DNA of 11,799 nt, taken from positions 1 to 11,799 of IMG/VR virus record IMGVR_UViG_2562617151_000001, one strand, 5' to 3'. Below are positions 1-11,799 of this stretch, piece by piece. The DNA comes from a virus. Its lineage: Duplodnaviria > Heunggongvirae > Uroviricota > Caudoviricetes. Position numbers and translations under genes: made by a program. The first letter of the stretch is position 1; every line of letters starts with the position of its first letter. The notes under the pieces were generated by a model, which worked only from the letters and a program-made list of their open reading frames with translations, ran no database searches and was not told where the DNA came from.

Positions 1-1254
1 ATGCTGGAACAAATGGGCATTGCCGCGAAGCAAGCCTCGTATAAATTAGCGCAACTCTCCAGCCGCGAAAAAAATCGCGTGCTGGAAAAAATCGCCGATG
101 AACTGGAAGCACAAAGCGAAATCATCCTCAACGCTAACGCCCAGGATGTTGCTGACGCGCGAGCCAATGGCCTTAGCGAAGCGATGCTTGACCGTCTGGC
201 ACTGACGCCCGCACGGCTGAAAGGCATTGCCGACGATGTACGTCAGGTGTGCAACCTCGCCGATCCGGTGGGGCAGGTAATCGATGGCGGCGTACTGGAC
301 AGCGGCCTGCGTCTTGAGCGTCGTCGCGTACCGCTGGGGGTTATTGGCGTGATTTATGAAGCGCGCCCGAACGTGACGGTTGATGTCGCTTCGCTGTGCC
401 TGAAAACCGGTAATGCGGTGATCCTGCGCGGTGGCAAAGAAACGTGTCGCACTAACGCTGCAACGGTGGCGGTGATTCAGGACGCCCTGAAATCCTGCGG
501 CTTACCGGCGGGTGCCGTGCAGGCGATTGATAATCCTGACCGTGCGCTGGTCAGTGAAATGCTGCGTATGGATAAATACATCGACATGCTGATCCCGCGT
601 GGTGGCGCTGGTTTGCATAAACTGTGCCGTGAACAGTCGACAATCCCGGTGATCACAGGTGGTATAGGCGTATGCCATATTTACGTTGATGAAAGTGTAG
701 AGATCGCTGAAGCATTAAAAGTGATCGTCAACGCGAAAACTCAGCGTCCGAGCACATGTAATACGGTTGAAACGTTGCTGGTGAATAAAAACATCGCCGA
801 TAGCTTCCTGCCCGCATTAAGCAAACAAATGGCGGAAAGCGGCGTGACATTACACGCAGATGCAGCTGCACTGGCGCAGTTGCAGGCAGGCCCTGCGAAG
901 GTGGTTGCTGTTAAAGCCGAAGAGTATGACGATGAGTTTCTGTCATTAGATTTGAACGTCAAAATCGTCAGCGATCTTGACGATGCCATCGCCCATATTC
1001 GTGAACACGGCACACAACACTCCGATGCGATCCTGACCCGCGATATGCGCAACGCCCAGCGTTTTGTTAACGAAGTGGATTCGTCCGCTGTTTACGTTAA
1101 CGCCTCTACGCGTTTTACCGACGGCGGCCAGTTTGGTCTGGGTGCGGAAGTGGCGGTAAGCACACAAAAACTCCACGCGCGTGGCCCAATGGGGCTGGAA
1201 GCACTGACCACTTACAAGTGGATCGGCATTGGTGATTACACCATTCGTGCGTAA
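1..1254 (+). CDS. proA: gamma-glutamyl phosphate reductase (glutamate-5-semialdehyde dehydrogenase), complete, 417 aa
   Basis: ORF 1..1254 translates to [30 protein letters not shown]...[13 protein letters not shown], which I recognise as E. coli ProA at full length (aldehyde dehydrogenase fold). Its position immediately upstream of thrW matches the K-12 arrangement proA-thrW. Confidence 0.96.
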
Positions 1255-1368
1255 ATAAAACCGGGTGATGCAAAAGTAGCCATTTGATTCACAAGGCCAT
1301 TGACGCATCGCCCGGTTAGTTTTAACCTTGTCCACCGTGATTCACGTTCGTGAACATGTCCTTTCAGG

Positions 1369-1444
1369 GCCGATATAGCTCAGTTGGTAGAGCAGCGCAT
1401 TCGTAATGCGAAGGTCGTAGGTTCGACTCCTATTATCGGCACCA
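1369..1444 (+). tRNA. thrW: tRNA-Thr, anticodon CGU
   Basis: 76-nt sequence GCCGATATAGCTCAGTTGGTAGAGCAGCGCATTCGTAATGCGAAGGTCGTAGGTTCGACTCCTATTATCGGCACCA read directly: 7-bp acceptor stem GCCGATA/TATCGGC, D-loop AGTTGGTAG, anticodon loop TTCGTAA (anticodon CGT), T-arm GGTTCGACTCC, encoded CCA. thrW is the known integration target of P22-family integrases. Confidence 0.95.
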
Positions 1445-1458
1445 TTTAAATCAATAAG

Positions 1459-2622
1459 TTACACATCATTAGTACCTTCCTTATTTTTTGACTGGGACAA
1501 ATTTGGGACCGATGGGTTCAGGATCGAGTCTATTTGCCGTGCGTGTTCGGTAAGGTGATTAGGTGCGAGGTGAGCATATCGACGAACCATTTCGATAGAC
1601 TCCCAGCCTCCCATTTCCTGTAACACTGACAACGGGACACCGGCTTGAACCAGCCAACTTGCCCAGGTGTGTCTCAAGTCATGAAATCTGAAATCATCAA
1701 TACCAGCTCGTCTCAGCGCCGCTTTCCAGGCTGTGTTTGCGTCATATCGCATCTTCCTGACTGTTGGCGCTTTCGTTCCGTCTGGTTTGGTACAGCTTTC
1801 CTTGTACACAAATACCCAATGGTGATGATTCCCGATTTGTTTTTTCAATACGCGACATGCAGTATCATTCAGCGCAACGCCAATTGCGCGGTTTGATTTA
1901 CTCTCTTCCGGGTTTATCCATGCCACCCGGCGCTGCATATCTATTTGTTGCCATTCAAGGTTGATGATGTTCGAGCGTCTTAAGCCTGTTGCCAGTGCAA
2001 ATTCAACAACAGACTTTAATGGCTCCGGACATTCATCAATCAGCCTTTGTGCTTCATGAGGCTCCAGCCAGCGGATCCGTTTATTCTTTGGTTGAGGCAC
2101 TTTAATAATTGGTGCCTTATCCAGCATTTTCCATTCACGCTCTGCGGCTCTTAGTAGGGCCTTTATAAATGAAAGATGCGTAGCCTTCGTTGCAACGGAC
2201 GCTGGTTTTGGCGTGTATTCTGGAACAGGTTTCCCTTTTTTTCTGCATGCTTCTGCCCTGAGTTTCCAGTTTTCCTCATGACGCCGGTTCGTCATTTTCT
2301 GCATTGCTGAATAAATTTTTGATTCAGTAATGTCTCTTAGTTGCATTCCTGCGAAATGTTGAAGCCAGAATCCGATCCGGCTTTTGTCATCGTCCAGTGA
2401 TTTTTTATGTGCTTTCTCTTCAAGCCACCTGACACACGCTTCCTCGAACGTTATATCAGGTATTTCACCAAGTTTGCTGACCCGCCATGCTTCAGCCTTT
2501 AGCTTGTCATGGAGTTCTGTCGCCTGCCTTTTGTCCTTTGTTCCAAGAGACTGTTTAAATCTTTTACCGTTCGGCAATGTGAAACTGGCGTACCATATTT
2601 CACCTCTGCGGAAGAGTGACAT
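1459..2622 (-). CDS. int: phage integrase, tyrosine recombinase, P22 Int-like, 387 aa
   Basis: ORF translation [47 protein letters not shown]...[39 protein letters not shown] matches my recollection of P22 integrase almost end to end, including the C-terminal R..H..R..Y catalytic region. It is adjacent to the tRNA target; stop TAA at 1461-1459. Confidence 0.95.
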
Positions 2623-2849
2623 TTTCTTTCCTCTGTTATGCCATCACCCGCGCTCACCTGGACAGTATGCAGCGGAGACTGAAGAGCCGCAATGCAGGCT
2701 TGTCGTGTTGTGAGGTAAGGAGATTTATTCTTAGTGGGATCTTTGCGTGTTGCCTGAAGACGCCCTGTGCGTATCCAGTTAATGGCAGTCGGTCTGGATA
2801 TCTTGAGAAAATGACAGGCCTCATCGAGTGTGAGGCTGTATGGCTCCAT
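2499..2849 (-). CDS. xis: excisionase (P22 Xis-like), 116 aa
   Basis: The internal ATG at 2849-2847 gives [57 protein letters not shown]..., a P22-type Xis with a helix-turn-helix. The 28 codons upstream in the track ORF look like a read-through artefact. The ATG overlaps the stop of the upstream gene as TAATG. The 3' end overlaps int by 124 nt in another frame. Confidence 0.8.
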
Positions 2850-3154
2850 TATTTCACCTCTTGCTGTGACATTGTTGAAAAATGGATACCAGCTCGTTGC
2901 TGCCAGACGATCCAACCGAGAGTCATATCCCATGCCATGTATTCGTTATCGCCGTTTTTTGCTCTCCGACGATCTACTAAGTCACCGAAACGCTTTTCCA
3001 TGAATAATTCATAAGCTTCGCGTTCATCTGGTTCTACTTCCAGAGATCGGAGTGCGATTTCATAAGCACGGCGCTCAATATCGTCTCGCACGTCAAGGCT
3101 GCTGATACGCTCTTTAATTTCTTTAATCAGTTCTTTGTCGGTAAAAGTGGTCAT
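2849..3154 (-). CDS. YfdT-like prophage early-left protein, 101 aa, function unknown
   Basis: ORF MTTFTDKELIKEIKERISSLDVRDDIERRAYEIALRSLE...; its position and length fit the CPS-53 yfdT slot (from memory). Start ATG 3154-3152 overlaps the stop of the upstream gene as TAATG; its own stop overlaps the xis start. Confidence 0.7.
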   Translation of the reverse strand: MTTFTDKELIKEIKERISSLDVRDDIERRAYEIALRSLEVEPDEREAYELFMEKRFGDLVDRRRAKNGDNEYMAWDMTLGWIVWQQRAGIHFSTMSQQEVK

Positions 3155-3516
3155 TATGCTCCAGCCTCCGGTGCTTTTGGCATTACTGCCCAGTGAGTGA
3201 TATTGACGTTTTCAAGGTCCCCGACCTGAAATGTCCACTGCCATTCTCCGGTTTCTTTTTGTCCCCAGGTGTACCAGAGAGAACGCCAGCCAATTAGCCA
3301 GCCTTCTCCGTTAGCATCGAATAACAAAACACTTTCATTTGCTGGTGGCAGTTCAGTTGACACTGGTATTACTTTGTTTTCCTGTGCTGCACATTTAGCT
3401 TCAAGCGCATCGAATTTACGCACCAGGTATTCAGCATCTGTTTCATTTACTTTCAGATCTCGCGGTACACATCTCCCACGAAGAAACCCTTCCATTTCGA
3501 AAACATTCATGCGCAT
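3154..3516 (-). CDS. YfdS-like prophage early-left protein, 120 aa, function unknown
   Basis: ORF MRMNVFEMEGFLRGRCVPRDLKVNETDAEYLVRKFDALEAK...THWAVMPKAPEAGA. Coupled to neighbours: the upstream gene's TGA (3509-3507) overlaps ATG codon 3 of this ORF, and its stop overlaps the downstream start. Confidence 0.7.
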   Translation of the reverse strand: MRMNVFEMEGFLRGRCVPRDLKVNETDAEYLVRKFDALEAKCAAQENKVIPVSTELPPANESVLLFDANGEGWLIGWRSLWYTWGQKETGEWQWTFQVGDLENVNITHWAVMPKAPEAGA

Positions 3517-4043
3517 TTGCGTAACTCCGATAACTCGTTAAAGCGTTCCATAAACATCCCGTAGGCATGGCCCGGTGCCAGTGGAATCACGTTGAACATC
3601 TCTGTTGCCGGGATACCTTCCAGTACAGGCCAGAAAGAGCCATCATCAAGCCCGAGATCGCGGCGTTCGGTTGCCAGCATGATGAGATCGGCATATTTCA
3701 CGGGCGTACTCATAACTGGGGGTAACCCGTATTTCTCACGGATTACGGCGTCTATTTTTTCTTCCATTTGTTTATAGTCAGGAAGAAGGCGTTTCAGTGG
3801 TGCGGGAATGTCCTGACAATACGCTTCTGTTGCATCATGCATTAACGCTTCGAAAGCAAACTCCTGCGGTACCAGCTGGCTGCAAAGCACCGCATGTTGG
3901 GCGACGCTGTAGAAGTGTGAAAGATGCCCTGCAAAGCGACAGATATTTGAGAGGGAAACTGCGATATCGTTAATCACGATGTCGTCTTTATTTATCCTGT
4001 CATAATAAAAATGCTTCCCGGAAAAAGTTTTAATAAATGACAT
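3507..4043 (-). CDS. HD-domain phosphohydrolase, YfdR-like (putative 5'-nucleotidase), 178 aa
   Basis: Start chosen at MSFIKTFSGKHFYY (ATG 4043-4041), preceded by GGAG about 8 nt upstream; the track ORF starts 9 codons earlier without an SD. HD signature visible: ...HLSHFYSVAQHAVL...EALMHDATEAY.... The length matches my recollection of K-12 YfdR. Confidence 0.8.
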   Translation of the reverse strand: MSFIKTFSGKHFYYDRINKDDIVINDIAVSLSNICRFAGHLSHFYSVAQHAVLCSQLVPQEFAFEALMHDATEAYCQDIPAPLKRLLPDYKQMEEKIDAVIREKYGLPPVMSTPVKYADLIMLATERRDLGLDDGSFWPVLEGIPATEMFNVIPLAPGHAYGMFMERFNELSELRKCA

Positions 4044-4170
4044 TTTGTTCTCCACGTATATGCGCTGCACCGCGCTGAATTCTGGTAAAAGGAAGCCCTC
4101 ACCATCCGGTGATTATTGAGTTAATTACGTTTCCATAAATGCCCCCGCAGGGGCATTTGCAGTAATGAAA

Positions 4171-4995
4171 TCAGGCGGTGAAAGTACCAATAAAGGTTTC
4201 GACTTTGCTGTCTTTGAATTTCTCAACAAGCAGATCACGAAATTCGTTAGCCATTTCTTCCTGCACTGCTTCCAGCTGAATAATGCGCAGAACCAGTACA
4301 GGGCGATCACCAGTGATAATGCTGAGTCGTAATTTAAATGGACGTTCTTTCAGGCCTTCAAACGGAACGCATTTAAATTCAAATGCCACTGGCATAATGT
4401 CTTTGGTCTTCGCTTCGACAGACTCCATCAGGGAGCGTTTGCCGCTGAAGTCATTGTCTTCAAAATCAGCAGTCTGGTTCGCTTCAATTGTGATTTTACG
4501 GACTGCCGCAGCCGCTTTTGTTGCCTGAATGGCGTCACCATTAGCATCAAAGCCCACAAGGTAGTCGGCCCAGTCTTCAATCCATTCTGCCAGTGACTTC
4601 TGGGAGTTACGCTCGCCGTTAACAGACAACAGAGCAGAGAACGGTGCTGTCTTTTTCAGTTTGAGAGTGGCGGTGTTATCTGCGTGACCTGGTTCATCAA
4701 TAGTACCCAGGTTAAGCACACTGACGGCACGCATATTATCAGCATCGATAAAGCAGCGGGTGCCTTCATCTGCAAGATCTTTAGAATAACGGGTAAAGTC
4801 ATCGATGCTGGCAGTGGAAAGCGCACCACGGAAACGGAAGCGATTTAAATTAAATTTTTCCAGATCATGAATGCGGAAATTCTCAGGCAATGCCACAGCA
4901 TCGGCACCAATCTTACTGATAATTTCATTAACACCCTGAGCAGAAATAAGGGCATGGATTTGATTAATTGCGGTTGCGTCTAAGTTCTGAGACAT
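4171..4995 (-). CDS. YfdQ-like protein (I recall this as the DUF2303 family), 274 aa
   Basis: [60 protein letters not shown]...; SD GAGGA about 6 nt upstream of ATG 4995-4993. The order yfdP-Q-R-S-T-like is the same as in CPS-53. Confidence 0.8.
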
Positions 4996-5060
4996 AATAA
5001 GTCCTCACTATATAAAGATATTCAGTGATGAGATAAATAATCAGTTAATTAAAAACGATA

Positions 5061-5423
5061 TTAACGACCTGCTGCGCGGAGTTTTCCGTCAGGTTCACCG
5101 GCAAGAGTCAGTAACTGTCCCTGGTCTTCCTGCAGAATAGTCAGGCGACCACCGCGATTGACATACATCGGCGTTTCGGTGGTGTCTTCTTCGGAAATTT
5201 TCCCGCGGTTAGTCGGGCGAACATATGAGAGTTTGTGTTTGATTTTCACACGGTTCTCATCAAATGGTTCGATTTCCAGGTTGAGTGAGACCTTACCTTT
5301 GGTTTTCGTGTTCATCACACCGGAAGCGACTTCACTGAGAACTGCGCCGATTTTGGTTTCAAATACGCCGCCGTCCAGCTCCCCGATAAATGCATGCACA
5401 TCAGTACTGCGTTCGCTAGCCAT
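5061..5423 (-). CDS. YfdP-like prophage protein, 120 aa; the track ORF is N-terminally over-extended
   Basis: Start placed at MASERSTDVHAFIGELDGGVFETKIGAVLSEV (ATG 5423-5421) because GAGGAG lies about 8 nt upstream. The 106 codons upstream in the track ORF are R/C/P-rich low-complexity translation of GC-rich non-coding DNA. Confidence 0.65.
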   Translation of the reverse strand: MASERSTDVHAFIGELDGGVFETKIGAVLSEVASGVMNTKTKGKVSLNLEIEPFDENRVKIKHKLSYVRPTNRGKISEEDTTETPMYVNRGGRLTILQEDQGQLLTLAGEPDGKLRAAGR

Positions 5424-5439
5424 TTTGCTGCTCCTCATC

Positions 5440-5760
5440 ATATCGACCCTGCAAGGCCGATTAGTTTCTCCACAAAACAGAGAAGAACACCTGCGGTGGC
5501 AGCCGCCCGGATGGATTGGGTTATGAGCCCGTCGTCCGGTGATGCTCTTCTCTGTTTTGTAAAAAGGACGGTACCAGCCGGAAGCAAGGGTACAAACTGG
5601 TACCGCCGGGACTACACACAGCATAAAGTTGTGGTGCCGGGTGCCTCCCGGTGCCTGGCGAAGGTTGCACACCAGACGGGTGGGTATCCACAGAAGGTCG
5701 ACTGTCAGCCTCAACCTTAACCCGCGTGCGCTGAGCCGCATTCACCACAACGCTAAGAAT
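5440..5760. other. GC-rich structured non-coding block; candidate structured RNA or relic of a foreign element
   Basis: No credible ORF in any frame (all translations are R/P/C-rich). Contains a perfect 15-bp inverted repeat (5472-5486 with 5546-5560), a 9-bp stem (5569-5577 with 5597-5605) and long-range 9-nt complementarity (5628-5636 with 5743-5751). Visibly more GC-rich than the flanking phage DNA. Confidence 0.3.
5472..5560. repeat. perfect 15-bp inverted repeat ACAAAACAGAGAAGA / TCTTCTCTGTTTTGT separated by a 59-nt GC-rich spacer
   Basis: Read directly: arm 5472-5486 is the exact reverse complement of 5546-5560; 2 further complementary bases lie inside after one mismatch. Confidence 0.85.
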
Positions 5761-5824
5761 TCTCTCTGGTTGAAAATACTTAGCTGTTATGTGCCTGCTT
5801 TTAGCCACATCAGGCGAGGTGGAC

Positions 5825-5876
5825 CTGGTTATTCCCCAACAACAAGGATTCGGTTAATCTGGTTATCCCCAACAAC
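5825..5876 (+). repeat. tandem direct repeat CTGGTTAT(T)CCCCAACAAC x2, 34-bp period, immediately upstream of the 144-aa ORF
   Basis: Copy 1 at 5825-5843 and copy 2 at 5859-5876 differ by one extra T; a partial CTGGTT copy lies at 5766-5771. Copy 2 ends 5 nt before the AAGGA SD of the ORF starting at 5892. Confidence 0.8.
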
Positions 5877-5891
5877 GCAAAAGGAAAAGAA

Positions 5892-6326
5892 ATGTCCGGT
5901 AATATCTATACGCTGTACAAATCCCACTGTGAAAATGTTGGAAAGTATCGGGGCATTGAAATCAGTGGGGTAGTGTCATCAGTCGAAATAAGCAAAGTTG
6001 AATCAAGGGCAACATTACTTACTCTTCTGGACCTTGTCTTACATGAGCACCGGAAGAAATTCGGCACTCCCTATAATCAGTTGAATGGGAAAAAAGCTCT
6101 GGTTCACCTTATTCTGATGAAGCATCACTGGATGCCAAAACAGATTAATGAGATGAAATTTGATGAACTTCTTCTTTCAATTCAGGATGAATTCACGCTT
6201 GATAAAATAAGCGTAACCGCCCAGAAATTTTTAGATTATCGAGACTGGAGATCACAAATTCATCACTTTGATGATTTTGACGAAAATGAATGGGATCCTA
6301 ATTTGTCTGCACAATATCTAAAGTAA
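5892..6326 (+). CDS. hypothetical protein, 144 aa, no recognisable family; moron-like, opposite strand to the early-left operon
   Basis: ATG 5892 preceded by AAGGA with a 6-nt spacer; stop TAA 6324-6326. Protein MSGNIYTLYKSHCENVGKYRGIEISGVVSSVEISKVESRATLLTLLDLVLHEHRKKFGTPYNQ... has protein-like composition (K/E/D/H-rich, ordinary hydrophobic content). AT-rich codon usage contrasts with the neighbouring GC-rich block. Confidence 0.7.
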   Translation: MSGNIYTLYKSHCENVGKYRGIEISGVVSSVEISKVESRATLLTLLDLVLHEHRKKFGTPYNQLNGKKALVHLILMKHHWMPKQINEMKFDELLLSIQDEFTLDKISVTAQKFLDYRDWRSQIHHFDDFDENEWDPNLSAQYLK

Positions 6327-6504
6327 CATCCTGTGATAAAACCGTGATTTCCTGATCCAGTTTTTTTAAGGAGTCTATTGTTTCCTGTCGATAAGACAGC
6401 ACTTCACGAAGCTGGTTTATAGCTGCCAGCTTCTTTGCCATCCACTCGTAAATTTCCTCATTTGTGTATCCGGGCGCGACGATTTTGGGTTCTGTTTTGT
6501 GCAT
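6298..6504 (-). CDS. hypothetical small protein, 68 aa; first gene downstream of the putative P_L (the position of N)
   Basis: Start at MHKTEPKIVAPGYTNEEIYEWMAKKLAAINQLREVL... (ATG 6504-6502), preceded by a strong SD GAGGAGG about 7 nt upstream; the track ORF begins 5 codons earlier. The 3' end overlaps the 144-aa ORF by 29 nt (convergent). Confidence 0.6.
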   Translation of the reverse strand: MHKTEPKIVAPGYTNEEIYEWMAKKLAAINQLREVLSYRQETIDSLKKLDQEITVLSQDVTLDIVQTN

Positions 6505-6562
6505 TTCACACCTCCTCAAGTTATCAGTTACTTGTTGATGGGGACCAGATTGTTAAAGAGCT

Positions 6563-6590
6563 AAGCGTCCTGTAGGGCGCTTTTTTGTTG
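6563..6590 (+). terminator. intrinsic (rho-independent) terminator-like hairpin plus T-tract
   Basis: AAGCGTCC-TGTA-GGGCGCTT stem (8 bp including one G-U) followed by TTTTTT at 6581-6586. On the minus strand the stem is preceded by an A-tract and followed by a U-poor sequence, so it is mainly plus-strand and at most weakly bidirectional. Confidence 0.55.
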
Positions 6591-6669
6591 CTAACGAATC
6601 ACCCTAGACTTTATATGCCCCAGGCGGCTACTTCGTGGGCGTCCTGCCTGTTCGTTATCTTTGATATAA

Positions 6670-6740
6670 AATCTAACTTAACTTAGTTATTATGGCAAGA
6701 GAAAACACCAAACTTTTCTTAGTTCGGTGCCTTAGTTAGA
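6670..6740 (-). promoter_or_regulatory. putative O_L / P_L region (leftward early promoter with repressor operators)
   Basis: Heptamer CTTAGTT occurs at 6682, 6718 and 6731, the same motif as in the cI-cro intergenic region. Minus-strand candidate promoter: -35 TTGCCA (complement of 6693-6698), 17-nt spacer containing AACTTAGTT, -10 TAGATT (complement of 6670-6675). Confidence 0.4.
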
Positions 6741-6751
6741 GAAGAGAGGTC

Positions 6752-7378
6752 TTAGAGTTCGTATTGAACTCCTTTGACTACACCAATGATAAGGCAATTA
6801 CCATTGATAGGGATGTTGGGATACCGAGGATTTAATGGCACTAAAAACTTTTGAGGGCCATCGATGACTAATTTTTTTACTGTAGCTTCGTTTGTTCCAT
6901 CAAGTCGAGCGATGACTATTTTTCCATGACGAGGTTCTGCATCTGGATCTACAATCACTGTTGCGCCTTCTGGTATTGTTGGGAGGCCATTAGGGTTAGT
7001 CATGGAGTCACCTTTAACCTCTAATGCAAATGAGTTATCACCAATCTTTAATGATGTATCTACCCACTTGTCCACTTCACTAAACACTTCTGCTGCCCTG
7101 CACTCAGTAAACTGCCCAGCCTGAACCCACGATATTACAGGAACTCTGCGCATGTTTGTGACGAGTTTGCCTTCAAACTCAGCACCATAAAGAATGTAAT
7201 CTATTGACGTATTGAAGAACTTCGCTAATTTCGAAAGTGCCTCCCCACCAGGGGTATTGATGTCTTTCTCCCAGTACCCCACAGCAACGTCGCTTACTCC
7301 ACAAAATTTACCCAATTCTTTCTGGGACGTTCCGGTAACTCTTCTCAGAGCTTTTATACGCTGACCAACCGTTTCCAT
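6752..7378 (-). CDS. cI: prophage repressor, CI / P22 C2-like (N-terminal HTH plus C-terminal S24 LexA-like autopeptidase domain), 208 aa
   Basis: ORF METVGQRIKALRRVTGTSQKELGKFCGVSDVAVGYWEKD... (HTH) ... ISWVQAGQF...LEVKGDSMTNP...ATVIVDPDAEPRHGKIVIARLDG.EATVKKL...GNCLIIGVV. Ser-Lys dyad context and overall architecture match the lambda CI / P22 C2 class. Divergent from cro. Confidence 0.92.
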   Translation of the reverse strand: METVGQRIKALRRVTGTSQKELGKFCGVSDVAVGYWEKDINTPGGEALSKLAKFFNTSIDYILYGAEFEGKLVTNMRRVPVISWVQAGQFTECRAAEVFSEVDKWVDTSLKIGDNSFALEVKGDSMTNPNGLPTIPEGATVIVDPDAEPRHGKIVIARLDGTNEATVKKLVIDGPQKFLVPLNPRYPNIPINGNCLIIGVVKGVQYEL

Positions 7379-7396
7379 AGGAGCACCATTTCTTGA

Positions 7397-7468
7397 ATTG
7401 CTAAGTAATCTTAGTTTTTATTGACCAAAGATAGATTTGTAATTAGCATCTAATAAAACTTAGTTTGG
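7397..7468 (+). promoter_or_regulatory. putative O_R / P_R region between cI and cro
   Basis: Near-palindrome CTAAGTAATCTTAG at 7401-7414; CTTAGTT at 7410 and 7459; 9-mer AACTTAGTT at 7457-7465 is identical to 6680-6688. Candidate P_R: -35 TTGACC 7421-7426, 17-nt spacer, -10 TAGCAT 7444-7449, then SD GGAGG 7467-7471 and cro ATG 7476. Confidence 0.45.
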
Positions 7469-7475
7469 AGGGCGT

Positions 7476-7676
7476 ATGACAACTGACGATATCGAAAGCT
7501 ACTTCGGCAGTATTGAGAAAGTTGCTGCTTTTTTCGGCATAACAACTGAAGCCGTTTATCAGTGGCGAAACCGTCCGGGCCAGTTAATTCCAAAAGGACG
7601 TGCAGCAGAAGCTGCATATAGAACTTGCGGACGGTTGCCATTTAAACCTGAGCTTTATGAAAAATCTAATGGATAA
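7476..7676 (+). CDS. cro: Cro-like transcriptional regulator (Cro / YdaS-type HTH), 66 aa
   Basis: [69 protein letters not shown]; a small HTH protein divergently transcribed from the repressor, with an SD in front. Confidence 0.85.
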   Translation: MTTDDIESYFGSIEKVAAFFGITTEAVYQWRNRPGQLIPKGRAAEAAYRTCGRLPFKPELYEKSNG

Positions 7677-8265
7677 ATCGATTAACAGAAACCACAGAAC
7701 GATGAGGCTAACCGTGGGTAAGCATCACTGGAAAGTAGAAAAACAGCCTGAGTGGTACGTGAAAGCTGTCAGAAAAACTATCGCAGCGTTGCCGGGTGGT
7801 TACGCTGAAGCAGCTGACTGGCTGGATGTAACAGAGAACGCATTATTTAACCGCCTTCGTGCCGATGGCGATCAGATTTTCCCGCTGGGATGGGCAATGA
7901 TTTTGCAACGTGCTGGTGGAACTCACTTCATTGCTGACGCTGTGGCGCAGTCTGCAAATGGCGTCTTTGTGTCTCTTCCTGATGTCGAGGATGTGGACAA
8001 CGCCGATATCAACCAACGCCTGCTGGAGGTCATTGAACAGATCGGCAGTTATTCAAAACAGATTCGTTCAGCAATTGAAGACGGTGTAGTGGAACCGCAT
8101 GAGAAGACAGCAATTAACGACGAGCTGTACCTCTCAATTTCGAAGCTGCAGGAGCATGCAGCACTGGTCTACAAAATTTTTTGCATTTCAGAAAGTAATG
8201 ACGCCCGCGAGTGTGCAGCTCCGGGCGCCGTGGCGTGTCGTGACTGTGGAGAAACTAACGCATGA
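7657..8265 (+). CDS. CII-like phage regulatory protein (YdaT / CP76-type); start uncertain
   Basis: ORF ...[73 protein letters not shown]...; lies directly after cro as in lambdoid layouts. Candidate starts are ATG 7657 and ATG 7669 (the latter 5 nt upstream of the cro stop); the track's 7600 start is a GTG only 1 nt after an SD-like AAAGGA and is unlikely. Confidence 0.65.
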
Positions 8266-8440
8266 ACAGTTTAACAACACACTACCGTCGCTCGCAACTG
8301 ATTGCGCTTCCTGTACCGGGTGGAAAAGCGAAGGTGGAGTATTGCTATGCAGTAAATGTACCAGGTGGCAGGGTAATTGTAACCCACAGCTTTGCAGAGT
8401 GGGCTGTGGGTGATTTTAACCGGCAAAAGGAGACAGTCCT

Positions 8441-8620
8441 TTGCGACAAGTTAACCGCTGGTTCAAAGATCACTACGGAGTACCCGTCAGAGTCATTCGT
8501 TGGGAGCCGGAAACACAACGGGTTATCTACCTCCGCGAAGGCTATGAGCATGAATGCTTCAGTCCGCTCGAACAGTTTCGTCGTAAATTCAGGGAAATAG
8601 AGGTCGGTCATGAGCACTAA
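8441..8620 (+). CDS. possible small protein (59 aa) with TTG start; alternative to the ATG-initiated 112-aa ORF 8262..8600
   Basis: AAGGAG sits 8 nt upstream of TTG 8441. The frame gives [59 protein letters not shown], a protein-like composition, ending at TAA 8618-8620 (overlapping the initiator start by 11 nt). It is absent from the ATG/GTG-based track. Confidence 0.35.
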
Positions 8621-9581
8621 ATTAACCGGCTATGTATGGGATGGTTGCGCTGCGTCAGGCATGAAATTATCCAGCGTGGCAATTATGGCCCGCCTGGCTG
8701 ATTTCAGTAATGACGAAGGTGTGTGCTGGCCATCAATTGAAACCATTGCCCGTCAGATTGGCGCGGGGATGAGTACCGTCAGAACGGCTATCGCACGGCT
8801 GGAAGCAGAAGGCTGGTTAACGCGTAAGGCGCGTCGCCAGGGTAACCGCAATGCGTCGAATGTTTATCAGCTTAACGTTGCGAAGCTTCAGGCAGCGGCA
8901 TTTTCTCAATTGTCAGATTCTGACCCGTCAAAATCTGACGCATCAAAATCTGACCCGTCAAAATCTGACGCATCAAAATCTGACCCGTCAAAATTTGATG
9001 CGTCGAAATCTGGCAAAAAAGCGGGTTTTCACCCGTCAGAATCTGGCGGGGATCCGTCAGTAAAATCAAAACATGATCCGTCAGATAAAAAAACTTCTCG
9101 TCCGGACGCTTCGCAACCGGACACGCAGACGGCTGAACAGGAGTTTTTAACTCGCCATCCTGATGCGGTTGTATTCAGCCCTAAAAAGCGCCAGTGGGGA
9201 ACGCAGGATGATTTGACCTGCGCACAGTGGCTCTGGAAAAAAATCATCGCCCTGTACGAGCAGGCCGCCGAATGTGACGGCGAGGTGGTTCGTCCCAAAG
9301 AACCGAACTGGACAGCCTGGGCAAACGAAATTCGCCTGATGTGTGTGCAGGATGGTCGTACTCACAAACAAATCTGCGAGATGTACAGCCGCGTCAGCCG
9401 CGATCCGTTCTGGTGCCGTAACGTGCTCAGCCCGTCGAAGCTGCGGGAAAAATGGGATGAGCTTTCCCTGCGCTTATCGCCGTCCGTCAGCACGTACACA
9501 GAAAAACGCGAAGACCCGTACTTCAAAGCCAGTTACGACAACGTGGACTACAGCCAGATCCCGGCAGGATTCAGGGGGTGA
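8610..9581 (+). CDS. phage replication initiation protein (lambda O-like role; N-terminal HTH, internal iteron-encoded linker), 323 aa
   Basis: N-terminus [70 protein letters not shown] is a typical helix-turn-helix replication-protein domain. The internal SDPSKSDASKSDPSKSDASK stretch is encoded by a 15-bp iteron array, the lambdoid ori-within-initiator arrangement. SD AGAGG precedes ATG 8610. Confidence 0.85.
   Translation: MSTKLTGYVWDGCAASGMKLSSVAIMARLADFSNDEGVCWPSIETIARQIGAGMSTVRTAIARLEAEGWLTRKARRQGNRNASNVYQLNVAKLQAAAFSQLSDSDPSKSDASKSDPSKSDASKSDPSKFDASKSGKKAGFHPSESGGDPSVKSKHDPSDKKTSRPDASQPDTQTAEQEFLTRHPDAVVFSPKKRQWGTQDDLTCAQWLWKKIIALYEQAAECDGEVVRPKEPNWTAWANEIRLMCVQDGRTHKQICEMYSRVSRDPFWCRNVLSPSKLREKWDELSLRLSPSVSTYTEKREDPYFKASYDNVDYSQIPAGFRG
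8919..9008. repeat. iteron array: six tandem 15-bp units alternating TCTGACCCGTCAAAA / TCTGACGCATCAAAA; probable prophage origin of replication
   Basis: Units at 8919, 8934, 8949, 8964, 8979 and 8994 (the last degenerate), with degenerate copies flanking (8911-8918, 9009-9023) and GATCCGTCAG repeated at 9051 and 9075, followed by an A-rich stretch at 9084-9095. Located inside the initiator CDS. Confidence 0.85.
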
Positions 9582-9583
9582 TC

Positions 9584-10072
9584 ATGAGTCTTTTGAATGA
9601 AGTTCAGAAATACATTGAAGCCCATCCGGGGTGTACTTCCGGAGACATTGCGGATGCTTTTGCAGGTTACTCACGGCAGCGCGTTCTGCAGTCAGCAAGC
9701 AAGTTACGTCAGAGTGGGCGTGTGGCTCACCGTTGTGAAGGGGATACACGCAGACATTTCCCGCGCCTGACTGAGAGAGCGCAGGAGGCGGAACCGCAAC
9801 CAGTTCGTGAAACCAGACCTGTGCGCAATTTCTATGTCGGCACTAACGACCCGCGGGAGATTTTGTGCCTGACCCGCCAGGCTGAAGAACTGGAGTCCAG
9901 GGGCTTATACCGTCGTGCTGCAACGGTGTGGATGGCGGCATTCCGTGAAAGCCACTCCCAGCCAGAACGAAACAATTTTCTGGCGCGTCGTGAGCAGTGT
10001 TTACGGAAAAGCAGCAAGCGCGCTGTATCGAGTGATGAGTGGTATCTGTCAGGGAATTACGTGGGGGCGTAA
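9584..10072 (+). CDS. PerC-family (Pch-like) regulator domain protein with an N-terminal winged-helix-like region, 162 aa
   Basis: C-terminal LTRQAEELESRGLYRRAATVWMAAFRESHSQPERNNFLARREQCLRK matches the PerC/Pch signature (LE..GLWRRAA..W ... RR..C). ATG 9584 is preceded by GGGGG; the GTG 9578 in the track is less likely. The stop overlaps the next start as TAATG. Confidence 0.6.
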   Translation: MSLLNEVQKYIEAHPGCTSGDIADAFAGYSRQRVLQSASKLRQSGRVAHRCEGDTRRHFPRLTERAQEAEPQPVRETRPVRNFYVGTNDPREILCLTRQAEELESRGLYRRAATVWMAAFRESHSQPERNNFLARREQCLRKSSKRAVSSDEWYLSGNYVGA

Positions 10073-10398
10073 TGACGACGTTAACTCAATGCCAGCAGCA
10101 GGTGCTGGATATGCTGATTTCTTATCAGAAAGAGCGTGGCTTTCCGCCAACCAATCAGGAGGTGGCAACCATGCTGGGATACCGTTCAGTGAATGCAGCG
10201 GTAGAGCATCTTCGCGCACTGGAGAAAAAAGGCGTCATCACGATAAAGCGTGGCGTGGCCCGGGGGATAACGCTTCATACCGCGGTGAAGGACGACGACA
10301 GCGAGGCGGTCGGGATTATCCGCGCACTGCTTGCCGGTGAGGAAAACGCAAGGTTGCGTGCAACCCACTGGTTACATGAGAGGGGCCTGAAAGTATGA
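10072..10398 (+). CDS. LexA N-terminal DNA-binding-domain protein without the S24 peptidase domain, 108 aa
   Basis: MTTLTQCQQQVLDMLISYQKERGFPPTNQEVATMLGYRSVNAAVEHLRALEKKGVITIKRGVARGITL aligns by eye with the LexA DNA-binding domain (LexA: ...[55 protein letters not shown]...). No Ser/Lys peptidase domain follows. Confidence 0.7.
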   Translation: MTTLTQCQQQVLDMLISYQKERGFPPTNQEVATMLGYRSVNAAVEHLRALEKKGVITIKRGVARGITLHTAVKDDDSEAVGIIRALLAGEENARLRATHWLHERGLKV

Positions 10399-10784
10399 AG
10401 CTGATCCTGCCTTTTCCGCCCAGCGTGAACACGTACTGGCGACACCCCAACAAAGGGGCGTTTGCAGGTAAGAGCCTGATAAGCGCGGCGGGGCGCAAAT
10501 TCCAGAGCGCGGCGTGTGCAGCAATAGTTGAGCAGTTACGTCGTCTGCCAAAACCAACGTCGGCACCTGCTTCAGTGGAGATCGTGTTGTTTCCTCCGGA
10601 TAACCGGATCCGCGATCTGGACAACTATAACAAGGCGCTGTTTGACGCCCTGACCCACGCGGGTGTGTGGGAAGACGACAGCCAGGTGAAAAGAATGCTG
10701 GTGGAGTGGGGACCGGTTATCCCGGAAGGGAAGGTCGAGATCACTATCAGTAAGTACGAGAAAACGGCGGGTGCAGCCGCCTGA
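10395..10784 (+). CDS. rusA: Holliday-junction resolvase RusA (crossover junction endodeoxyribonuclease), 129 aa
   Basis: MKLILPFPPSVNTYWRH...DNRIRDLDNYNKALFDALTHAGVWEDDSQV... follows the RusA pattern (PP..N.YYRH ... RRDLDN..K...DALT.AG.W.DD.QV). ATGA overlap with the upstream stop; typical nin-region gene. Confidence 0.88.
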   Translation: MKLILPFPPSVNTYWRHPNKGAFAGKSLISAAGRKFQSAACAAIVEQLRRLPKPTSAPASVEIVLFPPDNRIRDLDNYNKALFDALTHAGVWEDDSQVKRMLVEWGPVIPEGKVEITISKYEKTAGAAA

Positions 10785-10803
10785 TCAAGAGGAGAAACGA
10801 AGT

Positions 10804-11247
10804 ATGAATAATCTGATGGTCATTGATGGTATTGAAGTTCGTCGTGATGCTTATGGGCGTTACAGCCTGAACGATCTGCATCGCGCAGCAGTAGCATCTG
10901 GTGCAAATGCCAGAACCAAGGAGCCGGGAAAGTTTCTTTCCAGCCAACAAACTGTTGAGCTTGTTCATGAATTGACCAACACCCAGAATTTGGGTGTTGA
11001 CCCGGTGAGTGTGATTCATGGGGGAAATGAACGGGGAACTTATGTCTGCAAGGAACTGGTGTATGCCTATGCAATGTGGATCAGCCCGTCATTCCATCTG
11101 AAGGTGATCCGTACTTTCGACATGGTAACCAGCGCACCGGAAAAATTATCCGGACAGGCTGCTGACAAGATGCAGGCTGGTGTGATTCTGCTGGACTTTA
11201 TGCGTCGGGAGTTACCCGAACCGCGACAAGCCCTATATCCGGAGTAA
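10804..11247 (+). CDS. KilA-N domain protein, 147 aa
   Basis: Start at MNNLMVIDGIEVRRDAYGRYSLNDLHRAA (ATG 10804, SD AAGAGGAG 9 nt upstream); the GTG 10771 in the track is unlikely. ...GTYVCKELVYAYAMWISPSFHLKVIRTF fits the conserved KilA-N C-terminal block. Confidence 0.7.
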   Translation: MNNLMVIDGIEVRRDAYGRYSLNDLHRAAVASGANARTKEPGKFLSSQQTVELVHELTNTQNLGVDPVSVIHGGNERGTYVCKELVYAYAMWISPSFHLKVIRTFDMVTSAPEKLSGQAADKMQAGVILLDFMRRELPEPRQALYPE

Positions 11248-11250
11248 TCC

Positions 11251-11799
11251 ATGCATCGTATAGACACGAAAACCGCGCAGAAGGATAAGTTCGGCGCGGG
11301 TAAGAACGGTTTTACCCGTGGTAACCCCCAGACAGGCACGCCTGCCACCGATCTGGATGATGACTACTTTGACATGTTGCAGGAGGAGCTTTGCAGCGTG
11401 GTGGAGGCATCCGGTGCCAGCCTAGAGAAGGGGCGGCACGACCAGTTGCTTACCGCGCTTCGTGCGCTGCTGTTAAGCCGCAAGAATCCGTTTGGCGATA
11501 TCAAATCGGACGGCACGGTGAAAACGGCTCTCGAAAACCTTGGTTTGGGAGAAGCGGCGAAAAGGGATGTGGGCACAGGAGATAATCAGATACCGGATAT
11601 GGGAGCATTCGCTTCTGGTTCGGGATGGTTCAGGCTACCAGGTGGATATATTGTTCAGTTTGGCACTTTTTCAGGAAACACGACCCGCTTTATCAGTGGA
11701 CACTTCCCTATACCATTCCCTAATCAGCCGATGGTTTCAGTCAGTGTTATGTCTGATGCCGTTCAGTCAGACCCGTCGAATCCTCGCCCCGCAGGTTTT
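11251..11799 (+). CDS. tail-fibre-like protein, N-terminal 183 codons; 3' end beyond the window
   Basis: ATG 11251 with GGAG 7 nt upstream; open to the window end (absent from the track because there is no stop). Translation [74 protein letters not shown]...[21 protein letters not shown] resembles phage tail-fibre proteins by recollection; the family assignment is tentative. Confidence 0.5.

Follow-up and report, generated by a model that had tools for sequence, protein, structure and literature searches.

The stretch of DNA analyzed here, referred to as the window (11,799 nucleotides (nt); positions 1 to 11,799 of the IMG/VR record IMGVR_UViG_2562617151_000001, Caudoviricetes), belongs to a lambdoid prophage of the SfIV/SfV/e14 kind, and the element under study is a block of 468 bp (5424-5891) adjoining yfdP. 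The integrase gene (1459-2622, minus strand) is followed by an excisionase-like gene, yfdT, yfdS, yfdR, yfdQ, and yfdP (5061-5423, minus strand, start codon AUG at 5423-5421), and then by the block; cI (6752-7378) is also on the minus strand, with cro beyond it on the plus strand. Because a sigma-70 promoter scan placed a P_L-like promoter (TTGCCA-17-TAGATT) at 6698-6670 on the minus strand, the block sits in the path of early-left transcription. The comparative evidence firmly establishes the block as a non-coding, minus-strand, modular structured leader RNA of the early-left operon (yfdP-Q-R-S-T, xis, int). Its first domain, Block A, is with the same firmness a divergent member of the STnc100/PasD superfamily lying outside the Rfam threshold and outside the usual genomic position of the family, and the intrinsic terminator and Block B that follow are firmly established as conserved RNA structures. 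The novelty lies within a prophage RNA family that is already known: one of its branches has diverged, stands at another place in the genome, and is coupled to a second conserved RNA domain that belongs to no family.

Read 5' to 3' on the minus strand, the leader includes an upstream segment (5785-5822) containing CGCCUGAUGUGGCUAAAAGCAGGCAC (5816-5791), which by eye is common to e14, SfV, and phiES15; in phage LLS the counterpart of CGCCUGAUGUGGCUAAAAGCAGGCAC lies, also by eye, ~25 nt downstream of the P_L -10 hexamer. A short hairpin (5752-5784), found as an inverted repeat with arms at 5784-5772 and 5764-5752, stands directly 5' of Block A, and its 3' arm GAGAAUUCUUAGC holds the place of the boxA-like motif AGUGCUCUYNNC of the relatives. 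Block A (5628-5751) is a pseudoknotted domain of ~124 nt, closed by P1 (5751-5743 with 5636-5628) and containing the P2 hairpin (5740-5727), P3 (5725-5720 with 5681-5676), the variable P4 (5711-5682), the P5 pseudoknot (5718-5712 with 5667-5661), P6 (5675-5670 with 5660-5655), and the P7 hairpin CCGGG-AGGCA-CCCGG (5651-5637). Between Block A and the terminator is the conserved, single-stranded GU-rich box UGCUGUGUGUAGUC (5610-5623). The intrinsic terminator (5559-5607) has an 11-bp stem, GGCGGUACCAG/CUGGUACCGUC (5607-5597 with 5577-5567), a loop of 19 nt, and the tail CUUUUUAC (5566-5559). Block B (5472-5560) is an 89-nt three-way junction with a long stem (5560-5538 with 5492-5472), a conserved apical hairpin GGACGACGGGCUCAUAACCCAAUCCAUCCGG (5537-5507), and a variable hairpin (5506-5493). 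The leader continues with the conserved, single-stranded GGAGAAACUAAU (5471-5460), a small hairpin CGGCCU-UGCA-GGGUCG (5459-5444) whose stems covary and whose (U/G)GCAG loop is conserved, and the Shine-Dalgarno sequence GAGGAG of yfdP (5436-5431).

The initial annotation, made from the sequence alone, had listed four repeats in the block; all of them are present, and each corresponds to a helix of the conserved minus-strand RNA. The perfect 15-bp inverted repeat (5472-5486 with 5546-5560), for which the chance expectation in 468 bp is ~1e-4 by our own estimate, is the core of 25-nt arms (5472-5496 and 5536-5560, 84% complementary) forming the Block B stem; the 9-bp stem (5569-5577 with 5597-5605) is the terminator stem, and the 9-nt long-range pair (5628-5636 with 5743-5751) is helix P1 of Block A. 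The GGTGCC/CCGG-rich direct repeats do include a 10-nt repeat, CCGGGTGCCT/CCCGGTGCCT, at 5637-5656; however, they are really the arms and loop of one hairpin, P7. Folding of the minus-strand RNA of 5424-5891 gave -188.5 kcal/mol, compared with -154 ± 6 kcal/mol for shuffled sequences (z = -5.9, none of 100 shuffles equal), and the plus-strand fold had a z of -2.5. The GC content, also pointed out at that stage, is 0.56 at 5401-5700 versus 0.37-0.45 in the flanks; however, it reaches 0.56-0.62 elsewhere in the window, so the block is locally but not uniquely GC-rich.

The same stretch has been annotated in several ways, as a 226-aa (amino acids) open reading frame (ORF) that is a fusion with YfdP, together with an opposite-strand ORF, in SfIV (both as 'hypothetical proteins'), as a 'frameshifted' pseudogene by PGAP, and as the 103-aa 'protein YmfH' in e14 of K-12, and in many records it is left unannotated. 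The first description of the block as having no plausible ORF has to be qualified, since ORFs called mechanically (226, 114, 108, and 95 aa) overlap it and are annotated in databases; the comparative tests, however, agree with it in finding the block non-coding. When the block is compared with e14, ST64B, Kp4866-6, and LLS, its substitutions favor none of the codon phases (p = 0.43-0.92) and its indels measure 1 nt; in the neighboring yfdP and yfdQ, third positions are strongly favored (p = 6e-8, 2e-8, and 2e-12). Identity to ST64B is 79% for the block versus 62-64% for yfdP/yfdQ. In the median variant, some frame is free of stops over 97% of the segment, a statistic that is uninformative alone (GC-rich relatives often retain long frames without stops), and it was the codon-phase test that settled the coding question. 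Segment lengths are not multiples of 3, the open frame differs in the alignment from variant to variant, and the K-12 YmfH reading shifts between three different frames of the window. None of the ORFs of the block matched a Pfam or NCBIfam family, and the tests found for YmfH neither a conserved frame nor third-position bias nor indels in threes. The ymfH of e14 (L003 3002-3313) is the same locus, 89% identical to 5434-5822, with Block A scoring 99.7 bits there. Conservation gives the protein reading no support, and the best interpretation of ymfH is that it represents the leader RNA of xisE-intE. In K-12, 'ymfH-xisE-intE' has been treated as a single operon within the YmfT (e14 induction) iModulon (PMC12132413).

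Pattern scans of IMG/VR yielded ~200 loci with 54 distinct Block A sequences, and a covariance model (CM), R1, was built from Block A. A pattern applied to the genome collection, CCACAAN{4,14}TGCTGTGTGNAG, was too loose, the real copies among the 120 matches listed being L012, L071, and L106 (partial in L035 and L108). R1 has a single match in the window (5628-5751, minus strand, 110.7 bits), with no second Block A copy on the P_R side there, and strong matches in e14, ST64B, phiES15, Kp4866-6, LLS, and one Scandinavium genome. In the CM alignment of 72 distinct sequences, which is fitted to the model and hence leans towards structure, 93.8% of the cells in nested helices are paired and 17 of the 26 pairs have changed on both sides, the covariation score of Block A being 0.283 versus 0.113 ± 0.005 for shuffled alignments (reached by 0 of 500) and at most 0.061 with slid partners; two independent per-sequence tests agree. 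P5 and P7 were tested per sequence in Python because MAFFT columns lost register across Block A types. P7 is fully paired in all 53 distinct sequences, with six stem variants (GGUGG/CCACC, CCGGG/CCCGG, GGGGG/CCCCC, CCUGG/CCAGG, UCUGG/CCAGA, and GGUGG/CCAUC) and a nearly invariant AGGCA loop. P5, which joins the stretch just 3' of P3 with the P6 hairpin loop, occurs in ~10 sequence-distinct pairing versions, including AAGGUUG/CAACCUU, AAGGCUGG/UCAGCCUU, UGGUUAAU/GUUAACCA, AGCCAA/UUGGCU, GGUAAA/UUUACC, and UUAGUGAG/UUCACUAG, and these pairings are mostly rare individually among loop shuffles (p 0.0005-0.05). The proposal of a structured RNA in the leftward early path, possibly a small RNA (sRNA), is thus borne out by helices that covary over dozens of diverged prophages, by the early-left strand, and by the alignment of the STnc100 model to 5781-5558; the conservation and covarying stems that had been suggested as a check across related prophages were found.

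The boxA-like AGUGCUCUYNNC ends 4 nt before P1, a fixed distance, in 40 of 81 distinct contexts of the relatives, and in the window and e14 this motif is degenerate, GAGAAU(U/C)CUUAGC, and lies inside a hairpin. A 'type B' Block A was observed in Stx2-type phages (L254 557-691, minus strand; L248 8057-8158, plus strand; L172 6680-6808, minus strand), where a P2 loop GGCUGAU is complementary to a P7 loop AUCAGC present in place of the AGGCA loop, indicating a possible kissing interaction between the two loops; in L248 and L172 the type B copy is in tandem with a type A copy. Additionally, L198 has three Block A copies on one leftward gene string (290-421, 1527-1651, and 2938-3037, minus strand), the middle one being followed directly by a TerB-domain gene and a DUF3927 gene.

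The terminator downstream of Block A combines an 11-bp stem of about -21 kcal/mol with UUUUU on the transcribed strand, and its 19-nt loop exceeds the limit of a simple terminator scan. Its stem is wholly different in ST64B, Kp4866-6, phiES15, and LLS, with the hairpin and U-run always retained, and 56 of 81 distinct contexts show a terminator after Block A. Terminators and Block A types combine freely, the same terminator occurring with three types and one type with differing terminators, and no alternative pairing between Block A and the terminator was found. A further intrinsic terminator is located upstream of Block A in LLS (L009 ~2800-2860, minus strand, CUGGCUG...CAGCCAGCUUUUU) and in ST64B (L004 ~2880-2930, minus strand, CUGGCGG...CCGCCAGCUUUUU), so that the leaders of these two phages hold two terminators. 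The GU box is present in 49 of 81 distinct contexts, across differing Block A types, and could be an sRNA seed or a boxC-like element. By eye, the GU box (5610-5623) resembles the 3' arm of the Block B stem (5472-5492 vs 5538-5560), and because of this resemblance it could pair with the 5' arm of Block B, UACAAAACAG, across the terminator as a possible alternative fold.

For Block B, RNAalifold gave a 19-pair stem in which four pairs have compensatory changes and almost none are broken, with frequent G-U pairs that would be C-A mismatches on the opposite strand; no Rfam family matched it. With its 25-nt arms and perfect 15-bp core, the stem is as long as a duplex suited to RNase III (~20 bp or more, near-perfect), and Block B may serve the read-through mRNA as an RNase III target or in the control of translation. 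A processing site had been among the early suggestions for the block, and it is plausible for this long hairpin (5560-5472) only.

As for the Rfam scan that had been recommended, the gathering threshold returned only a tRNA in the window. When an E-value threshold was used, STnc100 (RF02076) aligned over its full length (model 1-206 of 206) to 5781-5558 on the minus strand with 42.3 bits (E 4.4e-8), below the gathering threshold of 47 bits; other early-left copies scored 40.6 bits (phiES15) and 35.1 bits (ST64B) against the same model. The shared core comprises the P1 stem, the GGUGAAU junction, the P6 hairpin, a near-identical CACCGGGAGGCACCCGGCACCA hairpin (P7), and a 3' intrinsic terminator, which is the 3' end of the Rfam STnc100 alignment; the residue-by-residue alignment has high posterior probability over the shared blocks. 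The P5 pseudoknot also appears, by eye, to covary in the canonical copies (AUCAGCA/UGCUGAU vs CUGGUG/CACCGG, L280), and STnc100/PasD RNAs likewise belong to lambdoid prophages of Enterobacteriaceae. In contrast, P2 and the inner part differ, and the early-left branch is often preceded by a boxA-like motif and, in the window, followed by Block B. The position is also different, with canonical copies just downstream of Q, in the leader of the late promoter, and the window copy in the N-less early-left leader, between the cI side and yfdP and far from Q. Canonical STnc100 copies after PF06530 Q genes score 141-166 bits in L280 (two in tandem) and 63 bits in L221, each between a promoter-like sequence (by eye) and a terminator.

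STnc100 and its structural relative PasD are expressed prophage sRNAs of unknown function (10.64898/2026.05.13.724894; PMC5331693; PMC12370729). Eleven copies of STnc100 have been reported in EDL933, one of them confirmed by Northern blot (PMC5331693), PasD was found Hfq-bound by RIL-seq like other Pas sRNAs (10.64898/2026.05.13.724894), and for the STnc100 family the 'actual role remains unclear' (PMC12370729). This published expression evidence concerns the canonical STnc100 and PasD copies (PMC5331693; 10.64898/2026.05.13.724894). The literature found contains no description of the early-left variant, the pseudoknot, or Block B. PasB was also considered as the counterpart of this element and ruled out, as it sits in a structural-gene operon.

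Other RNA matches were observed in the compared loci. In L280, the tandem canonical cassettes (promoter-like repeat, RNA, terminator) occupy 156-365 and 643-848 (minus strand) downstream of the Q gene, and a sub-threshold AsxR/AgvB-like match (100-152, plus strand) adjoins them on the other strand; the same locus has a C4 antisense RNA match (81 bits, 7039-7227, minus strand). ST64B has an isrK match of 62-64 bits (L004 5231-5307, plus strand). HK639 (L329) carries a weak STnc100-like match (44813-44923, plus strand, 18.7 bits) between annotated terminators downstream of a Q-like gene, and a true put RNA in its P_L leader.

The 468-bp block matches 58 phage records and 2781 of 5426 complete E. 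coli genomes, and it is kept across prophages of Escherichia, Shigella, Salmonella, Klebsiella, Cronobacter, and Scandinavium. Its leader position is constant, between the cI/P_L side and the first early-left gene, be that yfdP, kil, an rdgC-like gene, or xis (e14). In LLS, ST64B, and Stx2a_1447, the entire interval of 630-815 bp from cI to the first gene is leader, with no ORF and no room for an N gene; small ORFs near P_L in other relatives belong to unrelated PHROGs or families of unknown function, and no conserved N-like ORF was found between cI and the element among the relatives compared. Homology breakpoints are sharp at 5607/5608 and 5822/5823. The Stx2a/Stx2c phage group, mEp460, and cdtI share only 5424-5607 (terminator and Block B), which indicates that leader modules reassort as units, and the homology of SfV and e14 reaches 5822 and stops there, so that 5823-5891 is assigned to the opposite-strand ORF module, as the 5' flank of the 144-aa ORF and outside the RNA element. 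This ORF (5892-6326, plus strand; phrog_5286, ECs1072 family) is antisense to early-left transcription and overlaps the 3' end of a 73-aa ORF (6298-6519, minus strand; phrog_1744); in an E. coli locus of 99.8% identity, a BRCT-domain gene comes next. Two direct repeats of GUUGUUGGGGA(A)UAACCAG in the minus-strand reading (5876-5859 and 5843-5825, 33-34 bp apart) occur only in phages with the 144-aa ECs1072-family ORF and may be an operator or promoter of this opposite-strand moron. At the other end of the operon, the tRNA gene of the gathering-threshold scan (1369-1441, plus strand, 71.8 bits) directly adjoins the integrase gene and is probably the attachment site of the prophage.

For the function of this leader, the preferred reading, at about even odds, is that it is an attenuator releasing an STnc100-like sRNA, followed by a 5' untranslated region (5'-UTR) module that governs processing or translation. 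After induction, Block A would fold co-transcriptionally in the leftward transcripts, and a fraction of these would stop at the terminator, lowering the expression of xis, int, and other early-left genes. Termination would free a predicted RNA of ~190-225 nt, built like an Hfq-type sRNA with a structured 5' body, a single-stranded GU box, and a terminator hairpin with its U tail, comparable to the Q-proximal STnc100 and PasD. In read-through transcripts, the 5'-UTR module would consist of Block B and the small hairpin, and it likely sets the processing, stability, or translation initiation (ribosome access) of the first early-left gene; processing by RNase III is proposed because the ~25-bp duplex of Block B suits this enzyme.

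Several points weigh against an attenuator with an sRNA product. Repression of P_L in the lysogen, if it occurs, would confine synthesis of the RNA to the time after induction, in contrast to the Q-proximal copies, whose source is presumably a constitutive late promoter, and the sigma-70 scan gave no convincing promoter directly upstream of Block A, the P_L-like site at 6698-6670 being the only one. An sRNA that does no more than base-pair would not usually have so elaborate a pseudoknot, with covariation and invariant nucleotides at the junctions, and the search of the window for complements of the GU box found nothing beyond chance, as did that for the P7 loop. Some relatives have several copies along one operon (three in L198), a boxA-like motif is present in many, and Block A stands directly before a gene without a terminator in L172, L229, L200, and the second copy of L198; terminator-less copies, multiple copies, and the boxA-like motif together hint at a role in cis in elongation.

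This role in cis is the content of the main alternative, which is clearly less probable than the preferred reading: elongation control similar to nut or put, in which Block A, with NusB/NusE recruited by the boxA-like motif and perhaps with the GU box as boxC, would modify RNA polymerase. The modified polymerase would resist Rho over the untranslated leader of 650-800 nt, read through the leader terminators, and replace the missing N, the short RNA being a by-product. The place of the element is that of putL in HK639/HK022 and nutL in lambda, after P_L and ahead of the first early-left gene, the relatives share no N-like ORF between cI and the element (LLS, ST64B, and Stx2a_1447 having no ORF there at all), and the boxA-like AGUGCUCU keeps its distance 5' of P1 in the 40 of 81 contexts. 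Furthermore, the family is found in both leaders of lambdoid antitermination, at P_L and after Q, an operon can carry several copies, some copies lack a terminator, terminator stems and Block A types shuffle independently, as if read-through did not depend on terminator pairing, and a complex conserved fold suits binding to a protein or to RNA polymerase. However, Block A has no sequence or CM similarity to put, boxA is degenerate and embedded in a hairpin in the window and e14, the upstream terminators of LLS and ST64B are beyond the reach of Block A, the window has no copy on the P_R side, and the Q-proximal copies coexist with Q. In the characterized systems, Q is not known to need an RNA element.

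A broader and more doubtful extension is that the whole STnc100/PasD superfamily is a pseudoknotted cis-acting module that reprograms the elongation complex (antitermination, anti-Rho, or anti-pausing), rather than primarily a group of base-pairing sRNAs. If so, Nus factors could come via the adjacent boxA, and the module would be used at the P_L leaders of N-less phages, in late-promoter leaders, and before morons; it would represent a second put-like RNA class, structurally unrelated to the first, and the abundant 'sRNA' of lysogens would be a terminated by-product.

A riboswitch-like sensor, in which Block A is an aptamer for a metabolite, an ion, or a host protein that sets termination and ties excision and early-left expression to the state of the cell, is improbable. 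The size of ~120 nt, the pseudoknot, the invariant junction and loop nucleotides, the variable peripheral hairpin, and a terminator 20-30 nt downstream would suit such a sensor; however, the lack of any alternative pairing between Block A and the terminator, the free combinations of terminators and types, the copies without a terminator, and the lack of a match to any Rfam riboswitch family argue against it. Less probable still is a protein gene or its decayed remnant of the YmfH type, that is, the YfdP fusion of SfIV or the frameshifted pseudogene of PGAP: stop-free frames are common, the 226-aa ORF runs from 5741 into yfdP, and K-12 annotates YmfH, but open frames are likely anyway because GC is high, and the shifting frame, the codon-phase evenness, the 1-nt indels, the segment lengths, the absence of a family match, and annotated ORFs that vary by record, even in strand, all speak against coding. 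A DNA-level feature (a foreign GC-rich relic or recombination site, as the initial annotation had offered, a recombination hotspot, or a cruciform) is the least probable reading, because the mosaic junctions at 5607/5608 and 5822/5823 and the locally raised GC are outweighed by G-U pairs valid and a far better fold obtained on the minus-strand RNA only, a strand-specific U-run, pseudoknot covariation that would be meaningless for DNA, no insertion sequence or transposase similarity, greater conservation of the block than of its neighbor genes, and its conservation over six genera.

A sequence present in about half of the complete E. coli genomes and annotated as hypothetical proteins, pseudogenes, or ymfH is thus a conserved structured RNA; ymfH-like 'genes' call for re-annotation, the curated Rfam threshold misses the entire early-left branch of the STnc100 family, and Block B adds a further conserved RNA domain that no Rfam family covers. 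The N-less lambdoid phages concerned include the serotype-converting phages SfV/SfIV, e14, ST64B, and several Stx2a and Stx2c phages, which put an untranslated leader of 650-800 nt with one or two intrinsic terminators before xis, int, and other early-left genes, and the passage through these terminators bears on prophage excision and on the induction of Shiga-toxin phages. The pseudoknotted core common to P_L-leader and Q-proximal copies supplies a structural hypothesis that can be tested for this abundant family of prophage RNAs. Two questions are made testable in this way, namely how N-less phages pass their leader terminators and what STnc100-type RNAs do.

Among the known systems, put is the closest in position. 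As with putL/putR of HK022 and putL of HK639, the element belongs to the P_L leader of N-less phages, where it stands ahead of the first early-left gene and is followed by terminators. The put RNA is a folded antiterminator that acts without a dedicated phage protein (PMC9378689), and Block A, also a folded RNA, would by analogy possibly act likewise. The target of HK022-type put is the beta' zinc-binding domain of RNA polymerase, through which pausing and termination are suppressed. In contrast, put folds ~70 nt into two stem-loops and a triple helix, Block A folds ~124 nt into six helices and a pseudoknot, the two have no sequence or structural homology, and antitermination is only hypothetical for Block A. 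The put-type location was observed as far as the P_L leader and the absence of N are concerned; a P_R-side copy is absent from the window, and in LLS and ST64B a terminator precedes Block A. A put-like element was one of the first suggestions for the block. Homology to put was considered from a local match by eye of 13/16 to HK022 putL (GCGGGUU.AGG.UGA), and it was ruled out by the Block A CM, which has no match at the put sites of HK022 or HK639; the annotated HK639 putL (34312-34187) resembles HK022 putL, not Block A. A nut- or put-like way of working is possible for the block.

A nut-like element had been suggested as well, and a lambda-type nut site was likewise rejected: the leader lacks a 15-nt boxB hairpin, to which an arginine-rich N protein encoded just downstream binds in such sites, an N gene is absent, and the window has a degenerate form of the boxA-like motif (boxA of nut sites being YGCUCUU(U)A); an intrinsic terminator inside the leader is a further difference. 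The order of elements is nevertheless similar to that in lambda nutL and the RNase III site of the N leader, with a boxA-like motif, a folded RNA, a GU-rich box, and a long duplex shortly before the ribosome-binding site of the first gene. StxS is an sRNA reported by Sy et al. in 2020 to arise from the early termination of the Stx2 phage late transcript. It differs from the small RNA considered here, which is only predicted, in its size (~74 nt), its unrelated sequence, and its promoter (P_R'), but the concept is the same, namely that a leader terminator of a phage operon yields a regulatory small RNA when antitermination is absent.

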